DNA of 63,478 bases, the filler included, from an uncultured Methanosarcinales archaeon (GTDB lineage: Archaea; Nanobdellota; Nanobdellia; Woesearchaeales; GW2011-AR9), in NCBI GenBank assembly GCA_964434885.1. It is 3 parts of 3 records of this genome, joined end to end, with 100 filler letters (N's around TTAATTAATTAA, not from the genome) between each part and the next. Parts side by side here need not be neighbours in the genome. Positions count along the whole stretch, not along the records: positions 1 to 13,612 come from CAYSWQ010000004.1; 2 more parts are not named here. The stretch is one strand, 5' to 3'. This document shows positions 9,155-45,024 of this stretch, piece after piece (within the stretch, counting starts at the first letter, position 1; each line of letters begins with the position of its first letter). Below the pieces are notes generated by a model. It did no database searches. It had not been told where the DNA came from and saw nothing but the letters and a program-made list of their open reading frames with translations. Position numbers and translations under genes: made by a program.

Positions 9155-9925
9155 TTACAAAGTATCTCTTACCACTTCTAGAAGATTAGCGATTAAACTA
9201 TCGGCCACACTTTGATTTTGACCTTTCTTTAAATCTTCAACCATCATTTTAATTTTTTGATTCTGATTTCCATATTGTTCAAAAGTAATCGCAACCTTGT
9301 GATCAATTGTGTGTTGGTTTTTGTCGGTGTTATTAGAGATCCATTTTCCTGCTTCTAAAATTTCTGAGTTTCTCTTTTCATTACTTAATTCAATCATCGC
9401 CTGCCCAATCAAGGAGTTAGCATATTCTAATCTTTGGCCTTCTTTAAGAAATTTGAGAGCCATCGAGAATTGGTCTTTTTTAGAATGTCCCTTCTCAAAA
9501 AAACTCGTGGCAGCCACATCCATCCCCATCCTGAATAAGTCCAGATTATCAAATATGACAGTACCAATATACAAAGATAGTAAAACTGCCAACCAAACCA
9601 GTTGCATTTCAGGAACCCAGATAACCGCAATAAAATAAATGATCATTAAACTTAACAACAAAGAAAGACCTAAAAAGAAAGTGCACAGGTATCCAAAAAA
9701 TCTTTGGACAAATACTTTTCCCACAGTAGTATAACTAAAAGCAAAGTATCCAGTTAAACTGCATAAAGTAATTATCCCCATAATTACAGCAATGGCTTCT
9801 AATTTTCCTGATTGACTAGCTGCAAGTAATCCTTTTCTAATAGGGTTTAATAGCAAGGCCGCAATAACAAAAGTGAGAGTGTATTTGATTAAATGTTCTT
9901 CCAATATTCTCTTAGTAAAAGCCAT
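9155..9925 (-). CDS. Hypothetical membrane protein (about 4 TM helices plus soluble C-terminus)
   Basis: 256-aa ORF, four hydrophobic segments, TATA-like TTTAAATA about 22 nt upstream. Confidence 0.75.
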   Translation of the reverse strand: MAFTKRILEEHLIKYTLTFVIAALLLNPIRKGLLAASQSGKLEAIAVIMGIITLCSLTGYFAFSYTTVGKVFVQRFFGYLCTFFLGLSLLLSLMIIYFIAVIWVPEMQLVWLAVLLSLYIGTVIFDNLDLFRMGMDVAATSFFEKGHSKKDQFSMALKFLKEGQRLEYANSLIGQAMIELSNEKRNSEILEAGKWISNNTDKNQHTIDHKVAITFEQYGNQNQKIKMMVEDLKKGQNQSVADSLIANLLEVVRDTL

Positions 9926-9967
9926 AATTTATCCGAAAGAAGACCTTATTTAAATTTTATGATAGAA

Positions 9968-10098
9968 TGGTGCTGTCAAGTTAAATGTGTTAGTAACAAA
10001 ACCACCCTGCATGGCCCAGGGATTTTTAGCTAAAAAAAGCTAAAAATGGGCCTCCTTTGGCAAAAGTGGTTTTGTAACACGCAAAATTGACTACACCA
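9968..10098. repeat. Structured intergenic element, copy 1 (long hairpin with GGCCC/GGGCC core)
   Basis: Outer stem ACAAAACCAC/GTGGTTTTGT, inner stem ATTTTTAGCT/AGCTAAAAAT, core GCATGGCCCAGG...GGGCCTCCTTTGGC shared with 22533-22617. Confidence 0.8.
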
Positions 10099-10110
10099 GA
10101 TAGAATATAT

Positions 10111-10452
10111 TCAATTAACTAAAAATTGAGGACTACAGCATAAGGCACGATAATTGCCTTGGATTTTGTCTTTGCAAGTTTTAAGCACTTCATTTTCCCA
10201 AGCGAGAACACAGGTTTTCTTTAAATTTCCACAAGCAATAGTTCCTCGCATTTTTCCAGTTCCAGAAGTGATCTCGCAAGAACTAATCATGCTTTTGATC
10301 CCTTGGTCAGAAGGCAAGGTAGAATAAGCTTGACCGACAGTAGAGATATAACTGGCCAACATGATTAAAATAGCTAAAGCTGAGACAACCATCACTACAA
10401 TGACCATGGTTTCATCCCAAGGATGTTTTTTGATATGGTGTTTGATATTCAT
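10111..10452 (-). CDS. Small membrane-anchored Cys-rich protein
   Basis: N-terminal TM helix and a C-terminal Cys-rich domain ending LCC. Starts 2 nt after the upstream gene's stop. Confidence 0.75.
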   Translation of the reverse strand: MNIKHHIKKHPWDETMVIVVMVVSALAILIMLASYISTVGQAYSTLPSDQGIKSMISSCEITSGTGKMRGTIACGNLKKTCVLAWENEVLKTCKDKIQGNYRALCCSPQFLVN

Positions 10453-10453
10453 T

Positions 10454-12649
10454 TTAACAACAAGTACATCTGGTAATGGTGTTTTTACTCCATTTAGTTG
10501 GGAAACCAGTTTCTTTTAATTGACAGATATTTGAGCAAGAAGTGGCAGAACCAGTTCTCACTTTACACTTATTTAACATTTTTAAGATATCTAAATAACT
10601 GAAAATTTGAATCTTAGGAACTACTTGTTTGATGGCTGCTTTTTTGGCTTCAGGTATTTTAGTGCAGATTTTATTAATGCACATTGATGTTCCAGCTTTG
10701 TCACAAGTTAAACCATCGCAATCTGAATCCTTACAATCATCTAAGTTATCTCCATCATCGTCTTTTTTATTAATACATGAAGTTTCTTTGCATTCTCTGG
10801 TTGTGTTAAGACAACTAGCCCCTTTGCCACAACCTAATAGCGGACTACAACATCTGGCTCCACCAGGACCATTTTGACCAGCTAAGATACAAGCCCCATC
10901 AAAACAATCTTTATTCCAAGTGAATAAATCTAAGCTACCAAAAAAATTCATTGGACCTAATAAAGCTGTTCCTGCCACGACTGGTGATTTAACAGCCATA
11001 GTGACATTTTGGCCTTTTTTAGTGAAAATATAATTAGTATTGGTGGTGATTTTAATTTTGTTTAAAGTTGCAAAAATTGTTAATTTGTCCAAATATTCTT
11101 TTTTAGTAAAGCCAATTAGTTTTACAATTTGTTCATTGATGATAACATCTGTCAGTTTACTCCCAACATTTACTCCCACTGCACTATTCCAATCATTATC
11201 TTTTTTGTCATTACAAATAATTTCAGAACATTTGCCCAATACACAAGCAGAACCAATACCTGCACATTGTTTGAGGTTACAATCAGGATCTTCGCAATCT
11301 GTTTTTCCATCCCAATCATCATCTTTTCTATTAGTGCAACTTTCTGGTTTGATTTCATGCCATTTTTTGCCATCGCAATGATAGGCGTTATTCACATTGT
11401 ATTTGCGATCACATTTCCACCAAAATTCTCGAACGGGAATTATTCCTTTGTAAGTTCGGTTGTAACAAAGGAAATTATTTACTATATCACCTTCTTTTTT
11501 TACTATTCCAGAAGGGCCTTTTTTGTAGACTTTACCATCTAAATCGCATTCATACCACTTATAATTCCCTGTTGAATTATCACATAAAGCATCAAAATTA
11601 TAAGGGAGAGTGTTTGGAATAGGAATTGTTTTTCCAACATATTCGGATTCGCACTTCTTTGCAAAGATCATTGTCCCGTCACAAATATACTCATTATTTT
11701 GATCAGATGGAGTGTTTCCTTTGAAAATAAACCCATCACAATTAGAATCTTCGCAATCTGTTTTTCCATCTCCATCATCATCTTGAGTATTGTTGCAGAT
11801 TTCATTTCCTGTTGGTTTAGATATCGATCCAGGTTGATTTCTATCTATTATTTCAATCTCATCCACTAAACCAGAAATACCATAAATTGATTTTAAACCA
11901 TCTTTGATAGTACAACAAGTATATTCTCCTCGATATTGGTGGTCGAATATCACTTTGATTGTTCCTTTAATTATGTTAATGGAATTAATTTTACCTGACG
12001 TTGGAGGCATGTAATAATAACCTCCTTTTTTTATGGATGCAGCAAATTTGATACCTCCAAAATACTCTTGGGTATAGAGTTCGATACTACAATCATCTAA
12101 ACATTCTAATTTTTTAATTCTAGTTACTCCTGACGTAGAAAGTAAGTTGTTGGTACGACTCACAAGAGTAGTAATGGTATCCCCTTGGGATTTTAGTTTA
12201 GCATGGTAGGTTTTCCCCAACTTAATAGATGCTACGTAACCAACTTTGTTTTTACCAACAACTAATTTTTCAGGTTTTCCCCAAAGAACTTCTTTAATGG
12301 ATGAAAAAACCATGTTCTCACACAAAATAGGTTGATTTTTGGTTTTATCCCATATTTGAAGAGAGTTACCAGAAAACTCTGGTTCAGTATACCCTTTTGA
12401 AGATACGATTGTTCCAACAAGATCCCCTTGGTAATCTTTTTTTTCATAAATCCGAGCCTCATAACCTTCGGCTACCATAAATCTCTCGAAAGGGAAATTA
12501 AAATTAGGGACGCTACAATCTAACTGCCCATAAGAAGTAATCCATGCATCCACATACTTAGTTTTTACTATTGGTGTTGTAGTAGCACATACCATTAAAC
12601 TACCTAATATCAACAAAACAAGTACAAACACTAACATCTTTTTCATCAT
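10454..12649 (-). CDS. Large secreted Cys-rich surface protein with CxNxxDDDxDGxxDCxDxDC repeats and beta/gamma-crystallin-like N-terminal motifs
   Basis: Signal peptide; three intact and one interrupted Asp/Cys repeat; GYEARIYEKKDYQG and SIELYTQEYFGG; ends CTCC. Confidence 0.75.
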   Translation of the reverse strand: MMKKMLVFVLVLLILGSLMVCATTTPIVKTKYVDAWITSYGQLDCSVPNFNFPFERFMVAEGYEARIYEKKDYQGDLVGTIVSSKGYTEPEFSGNSLQIWDKTKNQPILCENMVFSSIKEVLWGKPEKLVVGKNKVGYVASIKLGKTYHAKLKSQGDTITTLVSRTNNLLSTSGVTRIKKLECLDDCSIELYTQEYFGGIKFAASIKKGGYYYMPPTSGKINSINIIKGTIKVIFDHQYRGEYTCCTIKDGLKSIYGISGLVDEIEIIDRNQPGSISKPTGNEICNNTQDDDGDGKTDCEDSNCDGFIFKGNTPSDQNNEYICDGTMIFAKKCESEYVGKTIPIPNTLPYNFDALCDNSTGNYKWYECDLDGKVYKKGPSGIVKKEGDIVNNFLCYNRTYKGIIPVREFWWKCDRKYNVNNAYHCDGKKWHEIKPESCTNRKDDDWDGKTDCEDPDCNLKQCAGIGSACVLGKCSEIICNDKKDNDWNSAVGVNVGSKLTDVIINEQIVKLIGFTKKEYLDKLTIFATLNKIKITTNTNYIFTKKGQNVTMAVKSPVVAGTALLGPMNFFGSLDLFTWNKDCFDGACILAGQNGPGGARCCSPLLGCGKGASCLNTTRECKETSCINKKDDDGDNLDDCKDSDCDGLTCDKAGTSMCINKICTKIPEAKKAAIKQVVPKIQIFSYLDILKMLNKCKVRTGSATSCSNICQLKETGFPTKWSKNTITRCTCC

Positions 12650-13612: not shown

Positions 13613-13712
13613 NNNNNNNNNNNNNNNNNNNNNNNNNNNNNNNNNNNNNNNNNNNNTTAATTAATTAANNNNNNNNNNNNNNNNNNNNNNNNNNNNNNNN
13701 NNNNNNNNNNNN
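13613..13712. other. Artificial contig-joining linker
   Basis: N44-TTAATTAATTAA-N44 (stops in all six frames), exactly 100 nt. Confidence 0.98.
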
Positions 13713-21111: not shown

Positions 21112-22464
21112 TTATTGGAATTCCCAAATTTCTATATTGTTGCGAGTGTAAATTTTTTTAAATCTTTCGTTTTGGAATAAGAAAAGTAATCCCCCTTCAG
21201 TTGATAATTCGGCTCTAGTTTTGGGAGAAATATAAATGTGAGAAATATCGTTGTATTTGAATAAAGGAAAAGTATCTTCAATATATGTTGAATTCAATGC
21301 TTTTTTAACAATCTTTTCTCTATCTTTAAAATCAGAATCATGATAATGAATAAAAGCAGGTCTGTCAGAATAGTATTCTATTAAATAACTATCTTGGGGG
21401 TGAGAAAAGATTAATTTATATTGGGGGGTTTCATTTTGCATATGTTGGAGGCTATCTTTGATTGGGATGTTTGGATTTAATTGAGATAATGTATCTATAC
21501 TAGATAAAGTTGAAAAAACAATTCCTAATAATAAAAGGAAGATGGTTAAGTTTTTGATAATTTTTATTTTCCATTCTCTAATCAGTAAAAAATTTATTCC
21601 TAGTGCAGCTAGAGAAACTATAAAAAAATTGAGATAAATAATAAGTGAGGTGCGGTAGATACTTAATAAAGCAAGAAAACCTAAAAAAAAATAATTTATA
21701 AAAAATTTTTCTCTTTTCCAAGTGGCTGAAATTCCAATAGTAGCTAACAATAATAAAAAGAGGCTTATTCCAAATAATCCACCTAAATCTGAAAATAAAT
21801 CAATAATTACATTTTGTGGGTGATAAGGTCCTAGGAGAAATGGTTTTTGATAATTAAAAATGGTTGAGATAAAGGTAATTATTATTGATATCTTTATGAT
21901 GGATTCTCTTTTTAGATAAAAATAAGCAATTAACAATAATAAAGTAAGAAAAGAACTAAATAAATCAAAAAAAGGAATTATCAAGAAGATTGGCCAAGAC
22001 AAATAATTTATTATTTTGTTTTTGTTTAAGAGAAAATTAAATCCAAGGAGTATTAAAAAGATTATTAATGAAAAGTGAGTTAGAATTGTAAAAGTGTAAA
22101 TAAATGCTGGAGAGAGGATTAAGAATAATAAGAGAAAGAATTGGTTTTTTTTGGCTAATCCTAATTTATTTAAGTTATTTATTAGCAAAAAAATAGTTAA
22201 AATTCCCAAGATGAATGGAAGTAATTTGTAGATTATTAAATGATGAGTAAAATTAAGACTGAGAAATGAAAGATAAGGATTAGAATAAAGGAGAGGTGTT
22301 TCAATATTTTTTATTACATTGAGATAATAATAAGAAGGGGTTCCAATAATAGTGAGGTTGTTGGTTGTCCATCGAAGAAAGTTTGGCAATATTAAAATTA
22401 GTATTGATAAAACTATTAAATATATTTTTTGATGTTTGATAAAGTGTTTTAATATTGGATGCAT
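21112..22464 (-). CDS. Polytopic membrane protein, probable GT-C fold glycosyltransferase-like
   Basis: About 11 TMs plus a soluble C-terminus resembling that of 26095-27564; lies in the glycosylation cluster. Confidence 0.55.
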   Translation of the reverse strand: MHPILKHFIKHQKIYLIVLSILILILPNFLRWTTNNLTIIGTPSYYYLNVIKNIETPLLYSNPYLSFLSLNFTHHLIIYKLLPFILGILTIFLLINNLNKLGLAKKNQFFLLLFLILSPAFIYTFTILTHFSLIIFLILLGFNFLLNKNKIINYLSWPIFLIIPFFDLFSSFLTLLLLIAYFYLKRESIIKISIIITFISTIFNYQKPFLLGPYHPQNVIIDLFSDLGGLFGISLFLLLLATIGISATWKREKFFINYFFLGFLALLSIYRTSLIIYLNFFIVSLAALGINFLLIREWKIKIIKNLTIFLLLLGIVFSTLSSIDTLSQLNPNIPIKDSLQHMQNETPQYKLIFSHPQDSYLIEYYSDRPAFIHYHDSDFKDREKIVKKALNSTYIEDTFPLFKYNDISHIYISPKTRAELSTEGGLLFLFQNERFKKIYTRNNIEIWEFQ

Positions 22465-22532
22465 GATTATAGAAAAGATTAAGTGTTTATATTATTTTCT
22501 TTAAACTAAAGTAATTGAATTTAATTTTTTTG

Positions 22533-22617
22533 AAAATAAAAACACTACGCACGGCCCAGGTATTTTTTGGAAAAAACCCAAAAAATGGGCCTCCTTTGGC
22601 GGCAGTGTTTTTATTTT
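22533..22617. repeat. Structured intergenic element, copy 2
   Basis: Perfect 14-bp outer stem AAAATAAAAACACT/AGTGTTTTTATTTT, inner stem ATTTTTTGG/CCAAAAAAT, core GCACGGCCCAGG...GGGCCTCCTTTGGC. Confidence 0.8.
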
Positions 22618-22754
22618 AAGAAAAGAAGTTGTTTTTTTTAGACATAGAATATAGTTCTATAAAAAAGAAACATTTAAAAGGAAGTTCTGTTTACTTTAGG
22701 ATATTAGTTTGAGTGAGAGTAATATTAAAATTAAAAAATTAGAGGTGTGTGTAA

Positions 22755-24581
22755 ATGAAAAAAGTAAGTTTGATGATAGTTTTTATGTTAGTTATGTCTT
22801 TGTTTGTTAGTTCTGCTTTGGGAGCTCGTTACCCAACTGTTGGTACTGATAATAATACTTGGGGCACAATATTGAATGATTATTTGGGAACGTTGGCAGG
22901 AGATAATGCTACTCAATTGAATGGAACTATGGTTAATGGGACCAATATTTATAATGGGGTGATTAATTCTAGTCATTTAAATGCTGCTATTCAATTGAAT
23001 ACAACTGATAATTTAACAGTTTCTGGTGGCGCAGTTTTATTAGGATCGGGGGCAATGCCAACTGGTTCTTATGGTGTAGCAATGGGAGTTGATACAACTG
23101 TTAGTGGTTCTAATTCTGTGGCAATGGGAATAAATTCAATTGCTAGTGGGGCCCAATCTGTAGCCATGAACAATGGATGTGTGGCTTCGGGAGTTTCATC
23201 TGTCTGTATAGGGCAAAATACTAATGCTAGTGGATTAGCATCTATAACATTTGGGGAAAGTACAGTTGCGGAAAATTCATATGCTTTTGCATCTGGTTTG
23301 AATTCAAATGCAAGTGGAATAGGAACAGCAGTTTTTGGAAATGCAGTTAATGCTAGTGGTACAGGTGCGTTTGCAACTGGACAAGAAAGTCTAGCTAGTG
23401 GGACTTCAGCAGTAGCTATGGGTTCTTCAGCTACAGCAAGTGGTTCTGAAGCATTTGCTGTAGGAAATGGTGTTACTGCAAGTGGAGTGAATTCAATCGC
23501 AATGGGATTTGGATCTGTGGCTGAGAACCAAGAATCAGTAGCTATTGGAGGAAATGTTAATTCTAGTGGACAAGGATCAGTAGCAATGGGGCCAAATAGT
23601 AATGCTACAGGGGATTTTTCAGTTGCCATAGGAGATTCTAATAAAGCTAATAATTCTGCATCGGTTGCTATGGGTTCAAATTCATTGGCAGGAGGACAAC
23701 AGTCTTTTGCAGTTGGTTCTTATGCAAATGCAACTGGAGATAGGGCAGTGGCATTAGGAGACGGAGTGCTTGCTTCTGGAAATGGAGCAGTAGCTATGGG
23801 AACCAATACAGTTGCAAGTCAAGCATCTGCATTTGCTGTGGGTACTTCTGGAACTGCTACAGCCTCCAATGCAGTGGCAATGGGTTCTAGTACAATTGCG
23901 AATGCAGCTAATTCATTTGCTATTGGAGATTCAACAACAGCTAGTCAGAGCCAAGCAGTAGCTATGGGACTTTCAAGTGAAGCTAGTGGGGCTAATTCAT
24001 TGGCAGTGGGAGATACAGCAGCAGCTAGTGCTAATCAAGCAGTAGCAATGGGGTTTCAAACTACTGCATCAGGACTTAATTCTTTTGCTATGGGGGGAGA
24101 AACTGTTGCTAGTGGAGAGAATTCAACTGCTTTTGGTTGGCAAGCGAATGCAAGTGGAGATAACTCGTTTGCATTAGGGGAACAAGCTTTAGCCTCTGAA
24201 TTATTAGGTTTTGCTTGGGGATATAATGTTAATGCTACAGGAGAGCAATCTATGGCATTAGGAGATGGTATTCAAGTATCTGGAACTATGTCGATTGGAA
24301 TTAATTTAGATACCGATACTCTGGCAACTACTTTTTCGCAGGATAACACCATGGCAATAATGGGTGGTCCTTTGGGTGTCAATACAACTTCACCTAACCG
24401 AAATGTGGCAATCCATATAAATAATACTTTGCAGTTAGAACCAGTTAGTGGTGATACTCCACCTTGTACACCAACTGATAGGGGAGCAATATTTTATGAC
24501 GGGGATGCAGGCATAGATATGTTATGTATATGTGTTGGTTCTGGTTGGGTACGTGTGAATGATTCAGTAGCTTGTAGTTAG
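22755..24581 (+). CDS. Secreted adhesin-like protein with YadA-head (Hep_Hag)-type 14-aa repeats
   Basis: Signal peptide; about 30 repeats of ASGxxSxA(M/I)Gxxxx; many NxS/T sequons; GAGGTG SD. Confidence 0.85.
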   Translation: MKKVSLMIVFMLVMSLFVSSALGARYPTVGTDNNTWGTILNDYLGTLAGDNATQLNGTMVNGTNIYNGVINSSHLNAAIQLNTTDNLTVSGGAVLLGSGAMPTGSYGVAMGVDTTVSGSNSVAMGINSIASGAQSVAMNNGCVASGVSSVCIGQNTNASGLASITFGESTVAENSYAFASGLNSNASGIGTAVFGNAVNASGTGAFATGQESLASGTSAVAMGSSATASGSEAFAVGNGVTASGVNSIAMGFGSVAENQESVAIGGNVNSSGQGSVAMGPNSNATGDFSVAIGDSNKANNSASVAMGSNSLAGGQQSFAVGSYANATGDRAVALGDGVLASGNGAVAMGTNTVASQASAFAVGTSGTATASNAVAMGSSTIANAANSFAIGDSTTASQSQAVAMGLSSEASGANSLAVGDTAAASANQAVAMGFQTTASGLNSFAMGGETVASGENSTAFGWQANASGDNSFALGEQALASELLGFAWGYNVNATGEQSMALGDGIQVSGTMSIGINLDTDTLATTFSQDNTMAIMGGPLGVNTTSPNRNVAIHINNTLQLEPVSGDTPPCTPTDRGAIFYDGDAGIDMLCICVGSGWVRVNDSVACS

Positions 24582-32010: not shown

Positions 32011-32904
32011 TTAATCAACTAACTTAGTAATAAAAACATTATCTTCTCCTACAATTACAGAATGTTCAGCTTGAGAAATAATTCCTCGATTTTGATCTAC
32101 CAAAGGAGGATGTTGTTTTAGAGAATCATTTCTGATTAAAGTTCTTAGAGCGAAATTAGTTTTTGGAGTAGTGAACTTTCTTTCTAACCAGCGTTTGGCA
32201 AAAGGTAAGCCTTTGTATTTTTTGATTTCTTGTAAAATACTTCTTGTGATAGGATCTCTTACTGGTCGATCATCAACTAAAGTAAATACTGTTGCTGGTG
32301 AACTTTCTTGGACGATTCCTGCACCAGTAGAAGCGAAAGGTTCAATGGCAATTACTTGTCCTTCTTCTAATTCTGTATTGTTATTATTATTGAAATTAGG
32401 GATTGAAGGATAAGTATGGATATTATATTCTCCTAGGCCATGTCCGGAAAGATTTTTTACAGGAGCATAATTGTAAGAAGTAATTACGTCGTGAATTTCT
32501 TTTCCAATTTCACTTAAGGTTGTACCAGGACCAACAACTTTTAATGCTGCTGCTAATGCTTCTTTTGATGCTTTTACTAAGTCGGTGTATTTTCCTGAGA
32601 GGTCAACCGTTAGAGCATTATCTCCAATAAAACCATCGACATGAACTCCGACATCTAATTTGATTACTTGATCATTTAGAATGGTTTGATCATTGATATC
32701 TGAACAAGAATGGGCAGCAAATTCATTTAATGAGATTTGTGCTGGAAAAGCAGGTTGTCCTCCTAGTTCTGTGATTTTATTTTCTACCTTGTCGAGAATA
32801 TTGATTACTTTAGCTTCTGGTTTGATTAAGGATTTTCCAAATTGTAATGCTTCAGCAGCAATCTTTCCTGCTTGTAAATATTTTTGTAAGGTTTCGTCAT
32901 CCAT
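32011..32904 (-). CDS. map: Methionine aminopeptidase type II
   Basis: PAFP, AAH, DVGVHVDGFIGD, NLSGH, AIEPF, QAEHS. Confidence 0.96.
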   Translation of the reverse strand: MDDETLQKYLQAGKIAAEALQFGKSLIKPEAKVINILDKVENKITELGGQPAFPAQISLNEFAAHSCSDINDQTILNDQVIKLDVGVHVDGFIGDNALTVDLSGKYTDLVKASKEALAAALKVVGPGTTLSEIGKEIHDVITSYNYAPVKNLSGHGLGEYNIHTYPSIPNFNNNNNTELEEGQVIAIEPFASTGAGIVQESSPATVFTLVDDRPVRDPITRSILQEIKKYKGLPFAKRWLERKFTTPKTNFALRTLIRNDSLKQHPPLVDQNRGIISQAEHSVIVGEDNVFITKLVD

Positions 32905-37561: not shown

Positions 37562-37646
37562 GCCCTTGTCGTCTAGTGGATAGGACGCAAGCTTGCGGAA
37601 TGATTGTGAAAAGCTTGTAACCGGGGTTCAAATCCTCGCAAGGGCA
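37562..37646 (+). tRNA. tRNA-Arg(GCG) with a 13-nt canonical (37/38) intron at 37599-37611
   Basis: Acceptor GCCCTTG/CAAGGGC, D arm GTCT..GGAC, anticodon stem CAAGC/GCTTG around TT-GCG-G[AATGATTGTGAAA]A, T arm CGGGG-TTCAAAT-CCTCG; CCA not encoded. Confidence 0.93.
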
Positions 37647-37743
37647 ATTTGTTACTATGGTGTAGTATGTAAACTAAAAATTTATAAAGGAATTTAACTT
37701 TGATTGTAAATGGTGGTTTTCTAAAGGTGTTTTGGATAGGAAT

Positions 37744-38583
37744 ATGCCTAGAAAAAAACATAACATTACACCTGAAATTATTGAACAAGTTAGAGCAATG
37801 TATGATGAAGTAGATGATAATGGGAAAAAAGTTTGGTCTCAAAGAAGGTTGGCTAAATATTTGAGGTTACCAAGAACATATATATCTGCATTTGTAAACG
37901 GTTTTGCATCACCACATGAATACCGAACACATTTAGCTAAAAAAAGGGGTTTTGCATCACTTACAGAATACCGAACACATCTAGCTAAAGAAAAAGGTTT
38001 TGCATCAAGACATGAATATCAAACACATTTAGCTAAAGAAAATGGCTTTCCATCACTTACTGAATACCAAACAGATTTGGCTAAAGAAAAAGGTTTTGCA
38101 TCACCACATGAATACCGAACACATCTAGCTAGGGAAAAAGGAGAAGAAGAACAATTTTTACTGAAAAAAAGATTACGTTTTAGTTTAGGGGACGTATTAA
38201 AAAGGTACACTTTAGATGGTAAGGTTCAATCTGCTCGTGAATATGGGATAGATTACTCAACAATTTGTGAATCTTTAGAAGAAGAAGCAAAAGAAGTTCA
38301 TGGTAAAACTTTGGAAGACATGAGAGAAGAGGGGTATCATGTTGACCATATTATCCCCGTAAGTTTTTTTGATTTAGAAAACCCAGAAGAAGTTAGGAGA
38401 TGTTATCATCCAAGTAATCTTAGATGGTTACCAGGGAGAGAAAATATGAGTAGAAGTAATCGTTTTAGAGAGGAAGATTTAGAGGTATTAGTAAGCATAC
38501 CTATGGCAGTATTTCCTGAACAAATGATGGGTTGTGGAGAATTATTACAAAAATATCCTCATTACTTTGTTCATACCACATAA
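37744..38583 (+). CDS. HTH + 5x16-aa repeat + HNH endonuclease, paralog 1
   Basis: WSQRRLAKYLRLPRTYIS HTH-like segment; GFxSxxEYxTHLAKxx repeats; YHVDHIIP...CYHPSNLRWL...ENMSRSN. Confidence 0.85.
   Translation: MPRKKHNITPEIIEQVRAMYDEVDDNGKKVWSQRRLAKYLRLPRTYISAFVNGFASPHEYRTHLAKKRGFASLTEYRTHLAKEKGFASRHEYQTHLAKENGFPSLTEYQTDLAKEKGFASPHEYRTHLAREKGEEEQFLLKKRLRFSLGDVLKRYTLDGKVQSAREYGIDYSTICESLEEEAKEVHGKTLEDMREEGYHVDHIIPVSFFDLENPEEVRRCYHPSNLRWLPGRENMSRSNRFREEDLEVLVSIPMAVFPEQMMGCGELLQKYPHYFVHTT
37900..38139 (+). repeat. Intragenic 48-bp tandem repeat x5
   Basis: Unit GGTTTTGCATCACCACATGAATACCGAACACATTTAGCTAAAAAAAGG and variants. Confidence 0.95.
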
Positions 38584-38710
38584 AAATCAAGTTAAGTTAG
38601 TTAAATTTGGCAGTGAACCTTTTTGGTCAAATCCTCGCAAGGGCAAATTATTACTTTTATGTAGTGAATTAATAGAAAGTTTTATAAATGCGTTTCTTTT
38701 AATCTCAATT

Positions 38711-39289: not shown

Positions 39290-39390
39290 ACTTTTTTTAG
39301 TTAAATTATTTTGATGACAATTAAATTTATAAAAAAGAGCTAATTATTAATTGATAGGGTGGTTTTTCTAAAGGAGTTTTGGATAGGAAT

Positions 39391-40482
39391 ATGCCTAGAA
39401 AAAAACATAATGTTACACCTGAACTTATTGAAAAAGTTAGGGCGATGTACGAAGAAGTAGATGATAAAGGTAAGAAGGTTTGGTCTCAAAAAAGATTAAG
39501 TGAACATTTAGGATTACCAAAACAATATATAACTGCATTTGTAAATGGTTTTGAATCTCATAGTGAATATAGGACTCATAAAAATAAACAGAATGGTTTT
39601 TCATCTTATACAGATTATTTAACTCATTTAGCTAAGAAAAATGGTTTTTCATCACCACATGAATATCGACAACATATGGCTAGGAAAAATGGTTTTACAT
39701 CAGAAACTCAATATCGGATTCATCTAGCTCAAGAAAATGGTTTTACATCAATATATGAACGTAGACTTCACCAAATTGGTAAGAGGGGTTTTAATTCATT
39801 TGGTGAATATCAAACTCATTTGGTAAAGAAGAAAGGTTGTTCATCATCACATGAATATCGTACTCTTCTAGCTCAAGAAAAAGGTTTTGAATCAACATAT
39901 AGTTATCAAGTTCATCTAATTCAAAATAGTATTTTTCCATCAATGCATAGTTACTTAGATCATTTAGCTAAAAATAATGGTTTTTCATCAGTATATGAAT
40001 ATCAACTCCATTTAATTAAAAAGAAAGGTTTTAAATCATATTCAGAATACCGATTTTATCTAGCTAGTAAGAAAGGTCTTGAAGATATTGTCAGATTAAC
40101 AAAAACATTAAGAAATAATTTTAATCGAGCATTAAAAAAATATACTTCCACTGGTAAAATTCAATCTGCTAGCAAGTATGGGATTGATTATTTAGCAATT
40201 TGTGAATCTTTAGAAGAAGAAGCAAGGCAAGTTTATGGTAAATCTATTAGTGAGATGAGAGAAGAAAAGTATCATGTAGATCATATTATTCCAGTAAGTT
40301 TTTATGGTTTAGAAGACCCAGAAGAAGTTAGAAGATGTTATCATCCTAGTAATCTTAGGTGGTTATCTGGAGAAGAAAATATGAGTAGAGGCAATAGTTT
40401 TAGAGCAGAAGATTTAGAAGTGTTGGTTAATTTACCAGTGGAAATTAATCCAAAAAAATGGCTTGCTGAATTGTGGCAGTGA
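39391..40482 (+). CDS. HTH + 11x16-aa repeat + HNH endonuclease, paralog 2
   Basis: Same N-terminal and HNH domains as 37744-38583, with 11 repeats. Confidence 0.85.
   Translation: MPRKKHNVTPELIEKVRAMYEEVDDKGKKVWSQKRLSEHLGLPKQYITAFVNGFESHSEYRTHKNKQNGFSSYTDYLTHLAKKNGFSSPHEYRQHMARKNGFTSETQYRIHLAQENGFTSIYERRLHQIGKRGFNSFGEYQTHLVKKKGCSSSHEYRTLLAQEKGFESTYSYQVHLIQNSIFPSMHSYLDHLAKNNGFSSVYEYQLHLIKKKGFKSYSEYRFYLASKKGLEDIVRLTKTLRNNFNRALKKYTSTGKIQSASKYGIDYLAICESLEEEARQVYGKSISEMREEKYHVDHIIPVSFYGLEDPEEVRRCYHPSNLRWLSGEENMSRGNSFRAEDLEVLVNLPVEINPKKWLAELWQ
39547..40074 (+). repeat. Intragenic 48-bp tandem repeat x11 (diverged)
   Basis: Exact 16-codon periodicity, from GFESHSEYRTHKNKQN to GFKSYSEYRFYLASKK. 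Confidence 0.92.
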
Positions 40483-40589: not shown

Positions 40590-40689
40590 NNNNNNNNNNN
40601 NNNNNNNNNNNNNNNNNNNNNNNNNNNNNNNNNTTAATTAATTAANNNNNNNNNNNNNNNNNNNNNNNNNNNNNNNNNNNNNNNNNNNN
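40590..40689. other. Artificial contig-joining linker
   Basis: N44-TTAATTAATTAA-N44. Confidence 0.98.
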
Positions 40690-42495: not shown

Positions 42496-43089
42496 ATGCC
42501 CAAAAACAAATTATTGTTAGTTGATCTGAATGACAAGAAAACCAAGAAGTTAGCAGAAACTATCACTAGCGATACTTCACGGAAGATTCTTGATTATTTG
42601 GCTGAGAAAGATGATACTGAACAAAACATGGCTAAGGAACTAGGAATTCCCATTTCCACCATTCATTATCATTTGCAAAAATTAGTAGAAGCTAGTTTAG
42701 TGGTAGTAGATGAATTTCATTATAGTAAGAAAGGCCGAGAAGTGAATCACTATAAGTTAGCTAATAAATATATTATTATTGCTCCCAAGAAAGTTTCTGG
42801 TATCAAAAGAGCTTTGAATAATATCTTACCAGTTGGTTTGGTTGTTTTAGGTGTTAGTGGAGTGATTAAGTTAATTAGTTCATTAACAAGTAAAGTTGGT
42901 CCAGTCCAGGAAAAAGTTTTAATGGCAGCAAAGCCAACAATGGCTAAATCAACTATGGATGGAGCTGCAGAAAGTGTTAGGGCTGTATCTTCTACTCCAG
43001 ATATGGCTCTTTGGTTTTTGATTGGGGGGATGAGTACTATTGTGATTTATTTGTTGGTAATGTTAATAAAAGAAAAATTAAAGAAATGA
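42496..43089 (+). CDS. ArsR/winged-helix regulator with two C-terminal TM segments
   Basis: SRKILDYL...AKELGIPISTIHYHLQKLVEASLV...SKKGRE; two hydrophobic segments. Confidence 0.85.
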   Translation: MPKNKLLLVDLNDKKTKKLAETITSDTSRKILDYLAEKDDTEQNMAKELGIPISTIHYHLQKLVEASLVVVDEFHYSKKGREVNHYKLANKYIIIAPKKVSGIKRALNNILPVGLVVLGVSGVIKLISSLTSKVGPVQEKVLMAAKPTMAKSTMDGAAESVRAVSSTPDMALWFLIGGMSTIVIYLLVMLIKEKLKK

Positions 43090-44895
43090 TTTTAGTTTCG
43101 CCAATACAGCTTCAATCAGTTTAATCAATTCTTGAATCTCTGATTTCTCAATAATTACTGTGGTAGAACTAGATCCAATAGTTAGGGTCTCACTATTCTT
43201 TTTCAAATGATTGGTTCCATCATTAGCAGTAGCAAAGACATAAACTTTGTCTCCTGGGTCAGTGTAACGATGATCTAAATCAAAAGTCAATGTAGTTCCG
43301 CTTTTGACATCTCTGAATACTTTGGCTCTTACTTGTACTCCATCAACCATCCAACGAAGAATTACTGTACCTAGTCCCTCATCAGAATAAGTAGTTTTGA
43401 CAACTAACTTATCTGTAGTGAGGGGGGAAGAAGGTGTGATTTTGATTTCACTCAAACTAGGCATATTATTTGTAGTGGTTTTTTCTTCAGGAGGTGGTGT
43501 GGCAGTTAATTCATATGCCCCTACATCAAATGCTTTGCCTTGCGGCCTTACATTGCCTGATAAATCAGTTGTAGCTAAGGTTGTAATTCCTGTATCTATC
43601 GCGGGGGAGTTTTCTTTCAATTGAAAATTATTATTGGGAGCGTCAACAAAAAGAGCGTCTTTAGTTTCCATCAATGAAGCATCTAACTCTGTTAGTTTCT
43701 GACCCCAGCCTTGTTGAGCATAAGTATCTCCATAAGCAACACCTTTGTAATCTATGTATCTGCCAGTTTGAGTTCCTCCAGAAAAGATATTGTTTTTTAT
43801 AGTTAATTTGGCTTGGTCATTAATCCAAACAGAACCTACATTTTTATGGAAAATGCTATTCAAGATTTCTACTTCCATGTTGCTTCCTCCACCATCATAA
43901 CCAAAAGTAGCAGTGTAAGAGTTCTGTCCATTTTTATTATGGTAAGCAACTACGGAATTAATGATTCGATATTTTCCAGGACCATCAAAAACAATCGCAG
44001 CATCTGCTCCTGTATCAGTTGAGATACTGTTTATGATATCTCCTCCTTGCCAGAATTTAATTCCATTTCTGGTGATGTGTTTTACAATGGTGTTGACAAC
44101 AGCTACTTTACTGGCTTTAAGATCTATTCCGTCGGCAGAAGCACCAGTGACAATACTGTCTTCAATGAGGATATTGTTTCCTGTTTCCATCGCAATACCA
44201 TCAGCTCCAGAACCACCTCCTGCGGAGCCAGTTAAATCAATGTTGGTATTGGTAATGCGAATATCTTGACACGGAGGACCTCCACAATGCAAACCAATTA
44301 CATAACCAGATGTATCTGGGTTTTTAATTTCAATATTTTTGAATAATGCTCCCTGGAGAATAGTGTTAGTTCCATCATAACTACCAGCTAAGCCTTCTCC
44401 ACTATTAGTAATTTTAATGTTTTTGAGGATTAAGTTTTTTTGGGTGGTGCTTTTTCCGAAATTTATTGCAGTGGCAAACCCATCTAAGTTAAATCCATCA
44501 ACAATTAAATTATCACCAGTTAAGATGAAACCATATCTAGAGCCAGTGGATTTGATGTTAACTATTTCGTTTTGGTAATTGGTAATAAGAAGGTTATTTT
44601 TTGATACGTGTAATCTCTCGTTGTAAGTGGGGAGAGAGTAGGTACCACCCCTCACGTAGATACCATCTCCCTCTTTGGAAATAGAAATCGCTTTGTTGAT
44701 AGTTTTGAACGGTTGAGATAAAGTTCCTGAATTCGAATCAGATCCTGTAGTAGCTACATAGTACTTATTTCCAGAAATAGAATATGCTCCTGGATCTTTA
44801 GGGAATTTAGTGTAATCAACACCAGCAATTTCTGGTGCAGCGTTTGCTGTAAGTGTCATTAAAATAAGTAACCCAATTATTAAAAAATATTTCAT
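43078..44895 (-). CDS. Secreted right-handed beta-helix (pectin-lyase-like) protein with choice-of-anchor-Q-like and Ig-like C-terminus
   Basis: YYVATTGSDSNSGTLSQPFKTI, DGIDLK, FQLKENSPAIDTG...DVGAYE; AGGAGG SD. Confidence 0.85.
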   Translation of the reverse strand: MKYFLIIGLLILMTLTANAAPEIAGVDYTKFPKDPGAYSISGNKYYVATTGSDSNSGTLSQPFKTINKAISISKEGDGIYVRGGTYSLPTYNERLHVSKNNLLITNYQNEIVNIKSTGSRYGFILTGDNLIVDGFNLDGFATAINFGKSTTQKNLILKNIKITNSGEGLAGSYDGTNTILQGALFKNIEIKNPDTSGYVIGLHCGGPPCQDIRITNTNIDLTGSAGGGSGADGIAMETGNNILIEDSIVTGASADGIDLKASKVAVVNTIVKHITRNGIKFWQGGDIINSISTDTGADAAIVFDGPGKYRIINSVVAYHNKNGQNSYTATFGYDGGGSNMEVEILNSIFHKNVGSVWINDQAKLTIKNNIFSGGTQTGRYIDYKGVAYGDTYAQQGWGQKLTELDASLMETKDALFVDAPNNNFQLKENSPAIDTGITTLATTDLSGNVRPQGKAFDVGAYELTATPPPEEKTTTNNMPSLSEIKITPSSPLTTDKLVVKTTYSDEGLGTVILRWMVDGVQVRAKVFRDVKSGTTLTFDLDHRYTDPGDKVYVFATANDGTNHLKKNSETLTIGSSSTTVIIEKSEIQELIKLIEAVLAKLKSFL

Positions 44896-45024
44896 TTTAT
44901 TGTCCTCCTTTGTGATATTACTTATCTTTTTAAGGGGTTTAAATTAGGTGGGATGAGAATACTAGCGTTATTGGTGAATGTTGGTGGGGTTTTTAAGAAA
45001 AATGAAATAGAAATAAAACTTGTT

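Follow-up and report, generated by a model that had tools for sequence, protein, structure and literature searches.

Genomic setting of two related intergenic loci

The window analyzed here, a stretch of 63,478 bases, is interrupted at positions 13613 to 13712 and 40590 to 40689 by linkers of N's. These linkers are artificial joiners in which N runs flank a short TTAATTAA-type spacer, so the window consists of three separate contigs. It encodes an archaeal gene set (an RFC-like AAA ATPase, RadA/Rad51, an ATP-dependent DNA ligase, TrmB, and NFACT), and the best named relatives of its GlyRS, at 74% identity, are Woesearchaeota or Nanoarchaeota, which bears out the earlier placement of this genome among the DPANN archaea. 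Close relatives exist, with 86 to 90% identity in GlyRS and up to 99% identity in proteins encoded beside the loci described below.

We found that two of the contigs each carry one copy of a module that spans 84 alignment columns, with copy 1 at positions 9995 to 10078 on the first contig and copy 2 at positions 22535 to 22617 on the second (neither is assigned to a strand). When the copies are aligned, the mean column identity is 88%. The left core, GCAYGGCCCAGGKATTTTT, lies at 10009 to 10027 and 22549 to 22567, and the right core, AAATGGGCCTCCTTTGGC, lies at 10044 to 10061 and 22583 to 22600, within an invariant core that runs from 10009 to 10061 in copy 1 and from 22549 to 22600 in copy 2. 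With up to three mismatches allowed, the left and right core patterns each matched two loci only across both strands of the 63,478 bases, and two matches were reached in 0 of 100 shuffles. Matches to a pattern of GGCCC and GGGCC separated by 8 to 38 nucleotides (nt) were confined to the same two loci in the window. Thus, a chance origin of the two-copy core match is excluded. The first-pass annotation had reported two loci with a shared core on different contigs, and both the loci and their sequences proved to be as it described. Of the non-linker inverted-repeat pairs listed for the window, the two copies are also the most hairpin-like.

Both copies are intergenic, lying between annotated ORFs, and the element, which measures 84 to 131 nt, is overlapped only by chance ORFs of 20 to 46 amino acids (aa). 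The G+C content of the module is 0.40 to 0.42, compared to 0.27 to 0.36 for the genome. One of the overlapping ORFs, a 34-aa frame spanning copy 2, was tried as a route to homologues of the element and rejected, as a search of representative proteins returned three unrelated long proteins.

At its full extent (see below), copy 1 lies between two minus-strand genes, 12 nt past the stop codon of the gene at 10111 to 10452 and 42 nt before the ATG of the gene at 9155 to 9925. The gene at 10111 to 10452 encodes a conserved, cysteine-rich protein of 113 aa, and the minus-strand gene 5' of it (10454 to 12649) encodes a cysteine-rich protein of 731 aa with an N-terminal hydrophobic stretch and internal 66-nt repeats; neither protein has a Pfam family. 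Copy 2 lies between divergent genes, one on the minus strand (21112 to 22464) and one on the plus strand (22755 to 24581), and is downstream of no gene on either strand; of the two copies, it alone lies upstream of a plus-strand gene. The gene at 22755 to 24581 encodes, in this archaeal genome, a 608-aa protein with YadA-head repeats (Pfam E value, 9e-58), and its promoter is predicted at 22673 to 22680, followed by a leader of about 52 nt. Proteins neighboring the two copies have relatives at 43 to 99% and 45 to 80% identity.

Spacing between the module and the downstream genes

At both loci, the module has the same orientation relative to the next minus-strand gene, which is leaderless. The distance from the module to the start codon of that gene is 70 and 71 nt at the two loci, and the distance to its predicted TATA box (13.9 and 6.1 bits) is 41 and 42 nt. 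The 70- and 71-nt spacing is not explained by random insertion, but as there are two cases, it carries little weight. One alternative that would account for it is that the module is a promoter-proximal cis element of the downstream minus-strand genes, such as an insulator, a terminator, or a factor-binding site, acting either as DNA or as an upstream transcript and placed at a set distance ahead of a leaderless promoter. Both of these genes encode membrane proteins without a Pfam family. In addition, on the other side of the module, a 10-mer, TATATTCTAT, whose exact sequence occurs in the window only at the two elements, is found on the minus strand at a matching distance, 23 nt outside the outer stem at copy 1 (10100 to 10109) and 26 nt outside it at copy 2 (22644 to 22653). 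However, the two cases are the only ones, the two downstream proteins are unrelated (best BLASTP E value, 1.1), and the sequence between module and promoter is not conserved. The predicted promoters also sit between the module and the minus-strand start codons, so the module lies outside the mRNAs of these genes. To our knowledge, an 84-nt hairpin with an asymmetric core is unlike the known archaeal operator sites, and we consider a role as a cis element of this kind improbable.

Two related candidates were tried and rejected. A riboswitch or 5'-untranslated-region (5'-UTR) leader does not fit promoters that are placed between the module and the minus-strand start codons of genes for unrelated proteins. 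The 10-mer TATATTCTAT was considered as a promoter, but it does not fit the TATA consensus of the genome, and its one-mismatch variants are not enriched (12 found versus 13.5 expected).

The two copies form the same hairpin with compensatory changes

We assigned four nested helices to the module, with the outer stem (10 pairs) enclosing, in turn, a 3-bp stem, a GGCCCA/UGGGCC stem, and an A/U-rich inner hairpin. Its unpaired bases form a 4-nt bulge (GGGA or GGTA) and an asymmetric internal loop, in which AY stands opposite UCCUUUG. All of these parts are present in copy 1, with GGGA as the bulge and UCCUUUG as the loop, and in copy 2 the hairpin arms at 22526 to 22546 and 22604 to 22624 are 90% complementary. 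The GGCCCA/UGGGCC stem, the 4-nt bulge (GGGA/GGTA), and the 7-nt loop are invariant between the copies, while the unpaired linkers beside the outer stem differ. The same helices were recovered unaided by RNAalifold. A further small hairpin in copy 1 (CCCTG..CAGGG) was discarded, as it is absent from copy 2.

In the 84-column alignment, all 55 of the 55 pair cells are Watson-Crick, with no G-U pairs. Five of the 28 pairs have changed on both sides, none has changed on one side only, and none is broken, in agreement with the earlier claim that the stems differ in sequence yet continue to pair. That claim holds for the outer stem as far as pairing is concerned, but the outer stems of the two copies are homologous, with 8 of 10 aligned pairs identical and only 2 of 10 compensatory (the stem of copy 2 is longer). 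In addition, the first-pass annotation had not listed the 3-bp stem, which reads UGC/GCA in copy 1 and CGC/GCG in copy 2.

When the 3' partners were slid by 1 to 3 columns, pairing fell to 36 to 56%. RNA folding of both strands of both copies gave z scores of -5.1 to -5.7, with 0 of 200 shuffles as good, and DNA folding of the same strands gave z scores of -4.6 to -6.4. The observed covariation value was reached in 12 of 500 shuffles, in a two-sequence control that cannot go below about 1 in 32. We conclude that the hairpin is real and that its pairing is maintained, and selection for pairing is likely. To this extent the earlier proposal of selection on structure is upheld, but we found nothing pointing to the ribozyme, pseudoknot, or HUH enzyme with which it had been linked. 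Since there are no G-U pairs, no functional strand is indicated, and because all pairs are Watson-Crick and the two strands are equally good folders, whether as RNA or as DNA, the pattern fits a constraint on DNA or on both strands.

The pseudoknot had been proposed between an AGG in the bulge and a CCU on the 3' side. These are three invariant complementary bases, which places them beyond covariation testing. They lie at opposite ends of a 6-bp helix with no linker, so that, judging from this geometry, the pairing is unlikely.

The display of the same single-stranded patches on a covarying hairpin raises the alternative that the element is a dedicated structured RNA, represented here by two paralogous small RNAs or modules. 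The plus-strand patches, which are the bulge AGGKA and the loop UCCUUUG, would then bind a protein or another RNA. The five compensatory pairs with no broken pair, the invariant unpaired bases, and the strong folds all speak for such an RNA, as do the elevation of module G+C above that of the genome and a closing stem of variable length, which is often seen in P1 stems. The lack of G-U pairs that would mark a strand speaks against it. H/ACA and C/D guide RNAs have a kink-turn with tandem G-A pairs and box motifs. By inspection of the element, we saw no kink-turn, no H/ACA or C/D layout, and no bulge-helix-bulge, and there was no tandem G-A arrangement at the bulge or loop on either strand of both copies. 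An ACA follows the stem in copy 1 only. Inspection also revealed no resemblance to a chromosome dimer-resolution site or to a ribosomal-protein binding site.

Neither copy has a recognizable promoter

In this genome, a TTTAWAWA box (at least 7 of 8 positions) ending 18 to 28 nt before the start codon was found at 27 of 57 gene starts, mostly with an A-rich stretch in front of it, and this placement makes most genes look leaderless. A minority of genes, many of them for secreted or surface proteins, have GGAGG/GAGGTG leaders instead. We used the 27 of 57 gene starts to train a promoter matrix (10th percentile of the training promoters, 5.2 bits); the training set consists of protein-gene promoters picked for a good TATA box, and weaker promoters could escape the matrix. 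As a positive control, the promoter of a tRNA gene in the window was found 24 nt upstream, with a score of 7.6 bits.

In contrast to this control, we found no BRE/TATA element 12 to 60 nt upstream of the hairpin base on either strand of either copy. The best scores were 2.0 bits (plus strand) and -0.4 bits (minus strand) for copy 1 and 1.1 bits (plus strand) and 0.7 bits (minus strand) for copy 2. The strong matches nearby belong to the neighboring genes at 9155 to 9925 (13.9 bits), 21112 to 22464 (6.1 bits), and 22755 to 24581 (7.1 bits), and a 6.3-bit match inside the A-rich inner hairpin of copy 1 has no counterpart in copy 2. By this matrix, neither copy looks like a transcription unit of its own. 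The absence of a promoter at either copy weakens the reading of the element as a stand-alone noncoding RNA gene. Transcription of copy 1 would come from the upstream minus-strand operon, of which it would form the 3' tail, and there is no evident source of transcription for copy 2.

Hairpins that follow stop codons are known to end or stabilize transcripts, and whichever strand of the element is read, the 5' arm of the outer stem is A rich and the 3' arm is U rich, as in a terminator or a 3'-UTR stabilizer. However, copy 2 follows no gene, and terminators need no invariant 53-nt core.

A structured RNA could also act on translation, since CCUCCUUUG on the plus strand of the module is complementary to the Shine-Dalgarno-type CAAAGGAGG and could mask ribosome-binding sites. 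Consistent with this, some genes have the GGAGG/GAGGTG leaders described above, and the 9-mer CAAAGGAGG is the leader of the gene at 43078 to 44895. Against it, most genes look leaderless, as judged from the TATA box in 27 of 57 starts, and sequences within one mismatch of CAAAGGAGG are not enriched (16 found versus 14.4 expected). The window contains four exact matches to CAAAGGAGG, two of which are the elements themselves. The other two are at 44904 to 44912 on the minus strand, in the ribosome-binding leader of 43078 to 44895, and at 32101 to 32109 on the plus strand, antisense inside the gene at 32011 to 32904. Paralogous small RNAs with a shared seed offer a parallel. One of these, sRNA41 of Methanosarcina, is reportedly an anti-Shine-Dalgarno small RNA, and the element likewise shows conserved patches, one of them CCUCC-rich, on diverged pairing stems. 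It differs from such RNAs in having no promoter, no strand signal, and no target-site enrichment. We regard a dedicated structured RNA as a possible but unlikely explanation for the two loci.

A different translational reading concerns the minus strand, on which a Shine-Dalgarno sequence, AAAGGAGG, and a start codon (AUG in copy 1 and GUG in copy 2) would be joined across the hairpin to begin a tiny ORF. The minus-strand internal loop does set CAAAGGA across from the first two bases of AUG/GUG, each copy has an ORF that begins at this point (20 and 21 codons), and the single variable base of the left core preserves a start codon. However, the peptides resemble each other only over the part encoded by the homologous outer stem, both frames stop in the TATA box of the next gene, and no promoter lies upstream. 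We put the probability that A/T-rich DNA contains two open frames of this length (about 20 codons) by chance at roughly 4%. We therefore find a tiny ORF of this kind highly improbable.

Copy 1 has features of an insertion

At copy 1, the hairpin runs past the shared module to form a long imperfect palindrome of 131 nt (9968 to 10098, unstranded), in which the closing stem is lengthened by about 27 and 22 nt (TGGTG..GTCAA / TTGAC..CACCA). The 131-nt palindrome folds with z scores of -5.4 to -6.4. The flanks of copy 1 lengthen the stem to a degree reached by 6 of 500 shuffled flanks, whereas at copy 2, where 112 of 500 shuffles did as well, the hairpin is not extended by its flanks. Between the copies, the left flanks are dissimilar (1030 of 2000 shuffles gave an equally good alignment), and in the right flanks a box of about 20 nt aligns (85 of 2000 shuffles as good).

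The palindrome of copy 1 is bracketed by an 8-nt direct repeat, GATAGAAT, at 9961 to 9968 on the left and 10099 to 10106 on the right. This pair is the only direct repeat of at least 6 nt around copy 1, it is flush with the palindrome, and it has the look of a target-site duplication; the right repeat overlaps the conserved 10-mer at 10100 to 10109. When the element and one repeat are subtracted, an intergenic spacer of 47 nt remains. Right after the left repeat, the element starts with GGTGCTGTCAAG, which reads GG..CTGTCAAG, and the left tip thus has GG followed by CTGT and CAA. The right tip, TGGTGTAGTCAAT, lacks TGT and has its GG shifted by one base. If a 7-nt repeat is assumed, the inverted terminal arms match at 10 of 12 positions. 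Copy 2 has no IS6-like tips, no flush direct repeat, and no terminal arms; its 8-nt AGAAAAGA pair sits 55 nt off on the left.

These features resemble those of IS6 elements, which are described in PMC7986276 as having 8-bp target repeats, GG tips, and cTGTt and caaa motifs in their terminal repeats, and as being abundant in archaea, with two IS6 MITEs known. By that description, the left tip of copy 1, GGTGCTGTCAAG, fits and the right tip, TGGTGTAGTCAAT, fits in part; the direct repeat and the IS6 likeness are both post hoc observations. With its 131-nt palindrome, flush 8-nt repeat, and IS6-like tips, copy 1 looks, from its sequence, like an insertion, and the flanking repeat suggests a cut-and-paste event that duplicated its target. 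A structured RNA would leave the flush repeat at copy 1 unexplained.

The first-pass annotation had also proposed a REP-like single-stranded DNA (ssDNA) hairpin used by an HUH enzyme and had suggested looking for linked RAYT, TnpA, or GIY-YIG genes. A hairpin of this kind, or one resembling an IS200/IS605 end and handled by an HUH (Y1) enzyme, would agree with an imperfect palindrome that is dispersed and intergenic, that has a conserved bulge and flanking bases, and that pairs on both strands. However, we found no transposase (Y1 included), HUH, RAYT, TnpA, TnpB, or GIY-YIG domain in the 57 ORFs of at least 90 aa at an E value of 1e-5, and none at an E value of 0.05 in 26 ORFs that were scanned again (22 of which had no Pfam match before). 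HUH elements are not known to make a target-site duplication, and the 8-nt flanking repeat at copy 1 speaks against this mechanism. In addition, REP hairpins are shorter than this element, with its nested helices and its length of 84 to 131 nt. There are 2 copies in 63 kb, whereas REPs are reported to number more than 100 copies per genome (PMC2817692). We judge handling by an HUH enzyme to be very doubtful. The more general likeness to a REP, as a dispersed palindromic repeat, comes nearer the mark.

This likeness extends to REP, BIME, and ERIC sequences as a group. The element, like them, is a dispersed imperfect palindrome found between genes, with copy 1 just after a stop codon, and the stems of these repeats are also preserved by compensatory changes. 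REPs are tied to RAYT genes, none of which is found in the window of the element. REP, BIME, and ERIC sequences also differ from it in being bacterial and present in high numbers (more than 100 per genome for REPs, according to PMC2817692), compared to two copies in an archaeal host.

Comparison with known families and other genomes

When the whole window was searched with Rfam 15 at gathering scores, the only match was to a tRNA and the element was unmatched, which upholds its description as an unrecognized motif. At E values of up to 10, copy 1 had one match, at 16.8 bits compared to a gathering score of 197, and copy 2 had 13 matches (best E value, 0.91), all far below gathering scores. Neither copy matched a ribozyme family in Rfam at E values of up to 10, no guide-RNA family was matched on either copy, and no riboswitch or ribozyme model scored near its threshold on either copy; the suggestion of a ribozyme-like motif thus found no counterpart among known ribozyme models.

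We also built a covariance model, R1, from the two copies, which score 109.5 bits (copy 1) and 99.9 bits (copy 2). Run with filters off, it gave no further copy in the window: apart from these two and their reverse strands, scores did not exceed 13.5 bits (E value, 0.74). The first-pass annotation had looked to such a model for further copies, and within the window the number stays at two.

A scan of genomes from 185,579 species for the core (GGCCCA, a gap of 14 to 44 nt, and TGGGCCTCCTTTGG) gave 21 loci, all in bacterial records. Their G+C content ranged from 0.36 to 0.71 and none had an A/T inner hairpin, and 21 loci is at chance level, given our own estimate of about 30 expected. The scan used the exact core pattern, which covarying relatives would escape; on its sequence evidence, an element with the exact core is absent from those species representatives. 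A blastn search of phage and plasmid collections with copy 1 (9960 to 10110) returned only chance matches of 21 to 26 nt, with E values of at least 1. The lack of a homologue outside the window, in the genome pattern scan and in the phage and plasmid search with copy 1, is a further point against a structured RNA. In the literature, searched by keywords and with five core strings, the element is undescribed, and the core strings gave one unrelated primer match. The element therefore belongs to no described family among those tested.

The tRNA gene found by Rfam (51.8 bits) lies at 37562 to 37646 on the plus strand, contains an intron, with an insertion of 16 nt, and was not detected by ARAGORN, which finds no tRNA in the window. 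Its 3' end and the sequence that follows (37628 to 37683) are repeated about 1 kb downstream, at 38627 to 38682, over 56 nt and with 77% identity. This 56-nt repeat pair brackets a gene at 37732 to 38583, and it could be an att-like duplication of an integrated element. Paralogous genes in this region, at 37667 to 38583 and 39314 to 40482, have 300-nt blocks with 76 to 81% identity and 48-nt tandem repeats in 14 copies, and they show weak HTH and HNH hints below the Pfam cutoffs.

Interpretation

Our preferred explanation, which we hold tentatively and regard as plausible but short of probable, is that the element is a lineage-specific dispersed palindromic repeat, an ORF-less, nonautonomous mobile element of the MITE/REP kind. 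In favor of a mobile repeat, the element is dispersed and intergenic, it contains no real ORF and no promoter, and copy 1 bears the marks of insertion. The strand-symmetric pairing, the unrelated downstream genes, and the lack of an Rfam family point the same way. A new small palindromic repeat fits this evidence better than a new RNA class does, and two copies are too few to settle the nature of the element.

The element is like an IS6-derived MITE in being small, ORF-less, and intergenic and, at copy 1, in having inverted arms and an 8-nt direct repeat. It differs from one in that the copies share their center and not their ends, the terminal arms of copy 1 having no counterpart in copy 2, where insertion marks are lacking altogether. 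In MITEs, the reverse is usual, and it is the ends that are conserved. Moreover, the whole element is a hairpin with an invariant asymmetric core, the ORFs of the window include no transposase, and there are two copies only. The combination of invariant unpaired bases and perfectly compensated stems is a classic signature of a functional RNA, and this also weighs against a mobile repeat. The corresponding claim would be that the element represents a novel structured RNA class of Woesearchaeales-type DPANN archaea, a scaffold that displays the invariant bulge and the CCUCCUUUG loop, with unrecognized promoters or a mobile carrier. Such an RNA might be protein binding, might mask ribosome-binding sites, or might even be catalytic. 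We think it rather unlikely that a class of this description accounts for the two loci.

For the mobile palindromic repeat that we prefer, the following mechanism can be proposed. The center of about 84 nt would fold, as a single strand, into the four-helix hairpin, and the element may have been recognized and pasted by a transposase encoded elsewhere in the genome. On insertion at copy 1, an 8-bp target would have been duplicated. The invariant unpaired bulge and loop could serve as a protein-recognition surface for the mobilizing enzyme or for a host factor. The element would be transcribed only passively, and at copy 1 the hairpin, with its U-rich 3' arm, may end or stabilize the transcript of 10111 to 10452 before the strong promoter of the next gene. 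Either selection or repair of one palindrome arm from the other could be what keeps the pairing.

The genomes of DPANN archaea are tiny (about 1 Mb), and our keyword search of the literature found no account of noncoding RNAs or repeat elements in this group. In DPANN archaea, a repeat whose hairpin is kept by compensatory change would be useful for marking mobile DNA or a conserved nucleic-acid-binding activity. Should the element be a true RNA, the lineage would gain a family where one tRNA is all that the Rfam scan of this window detects.
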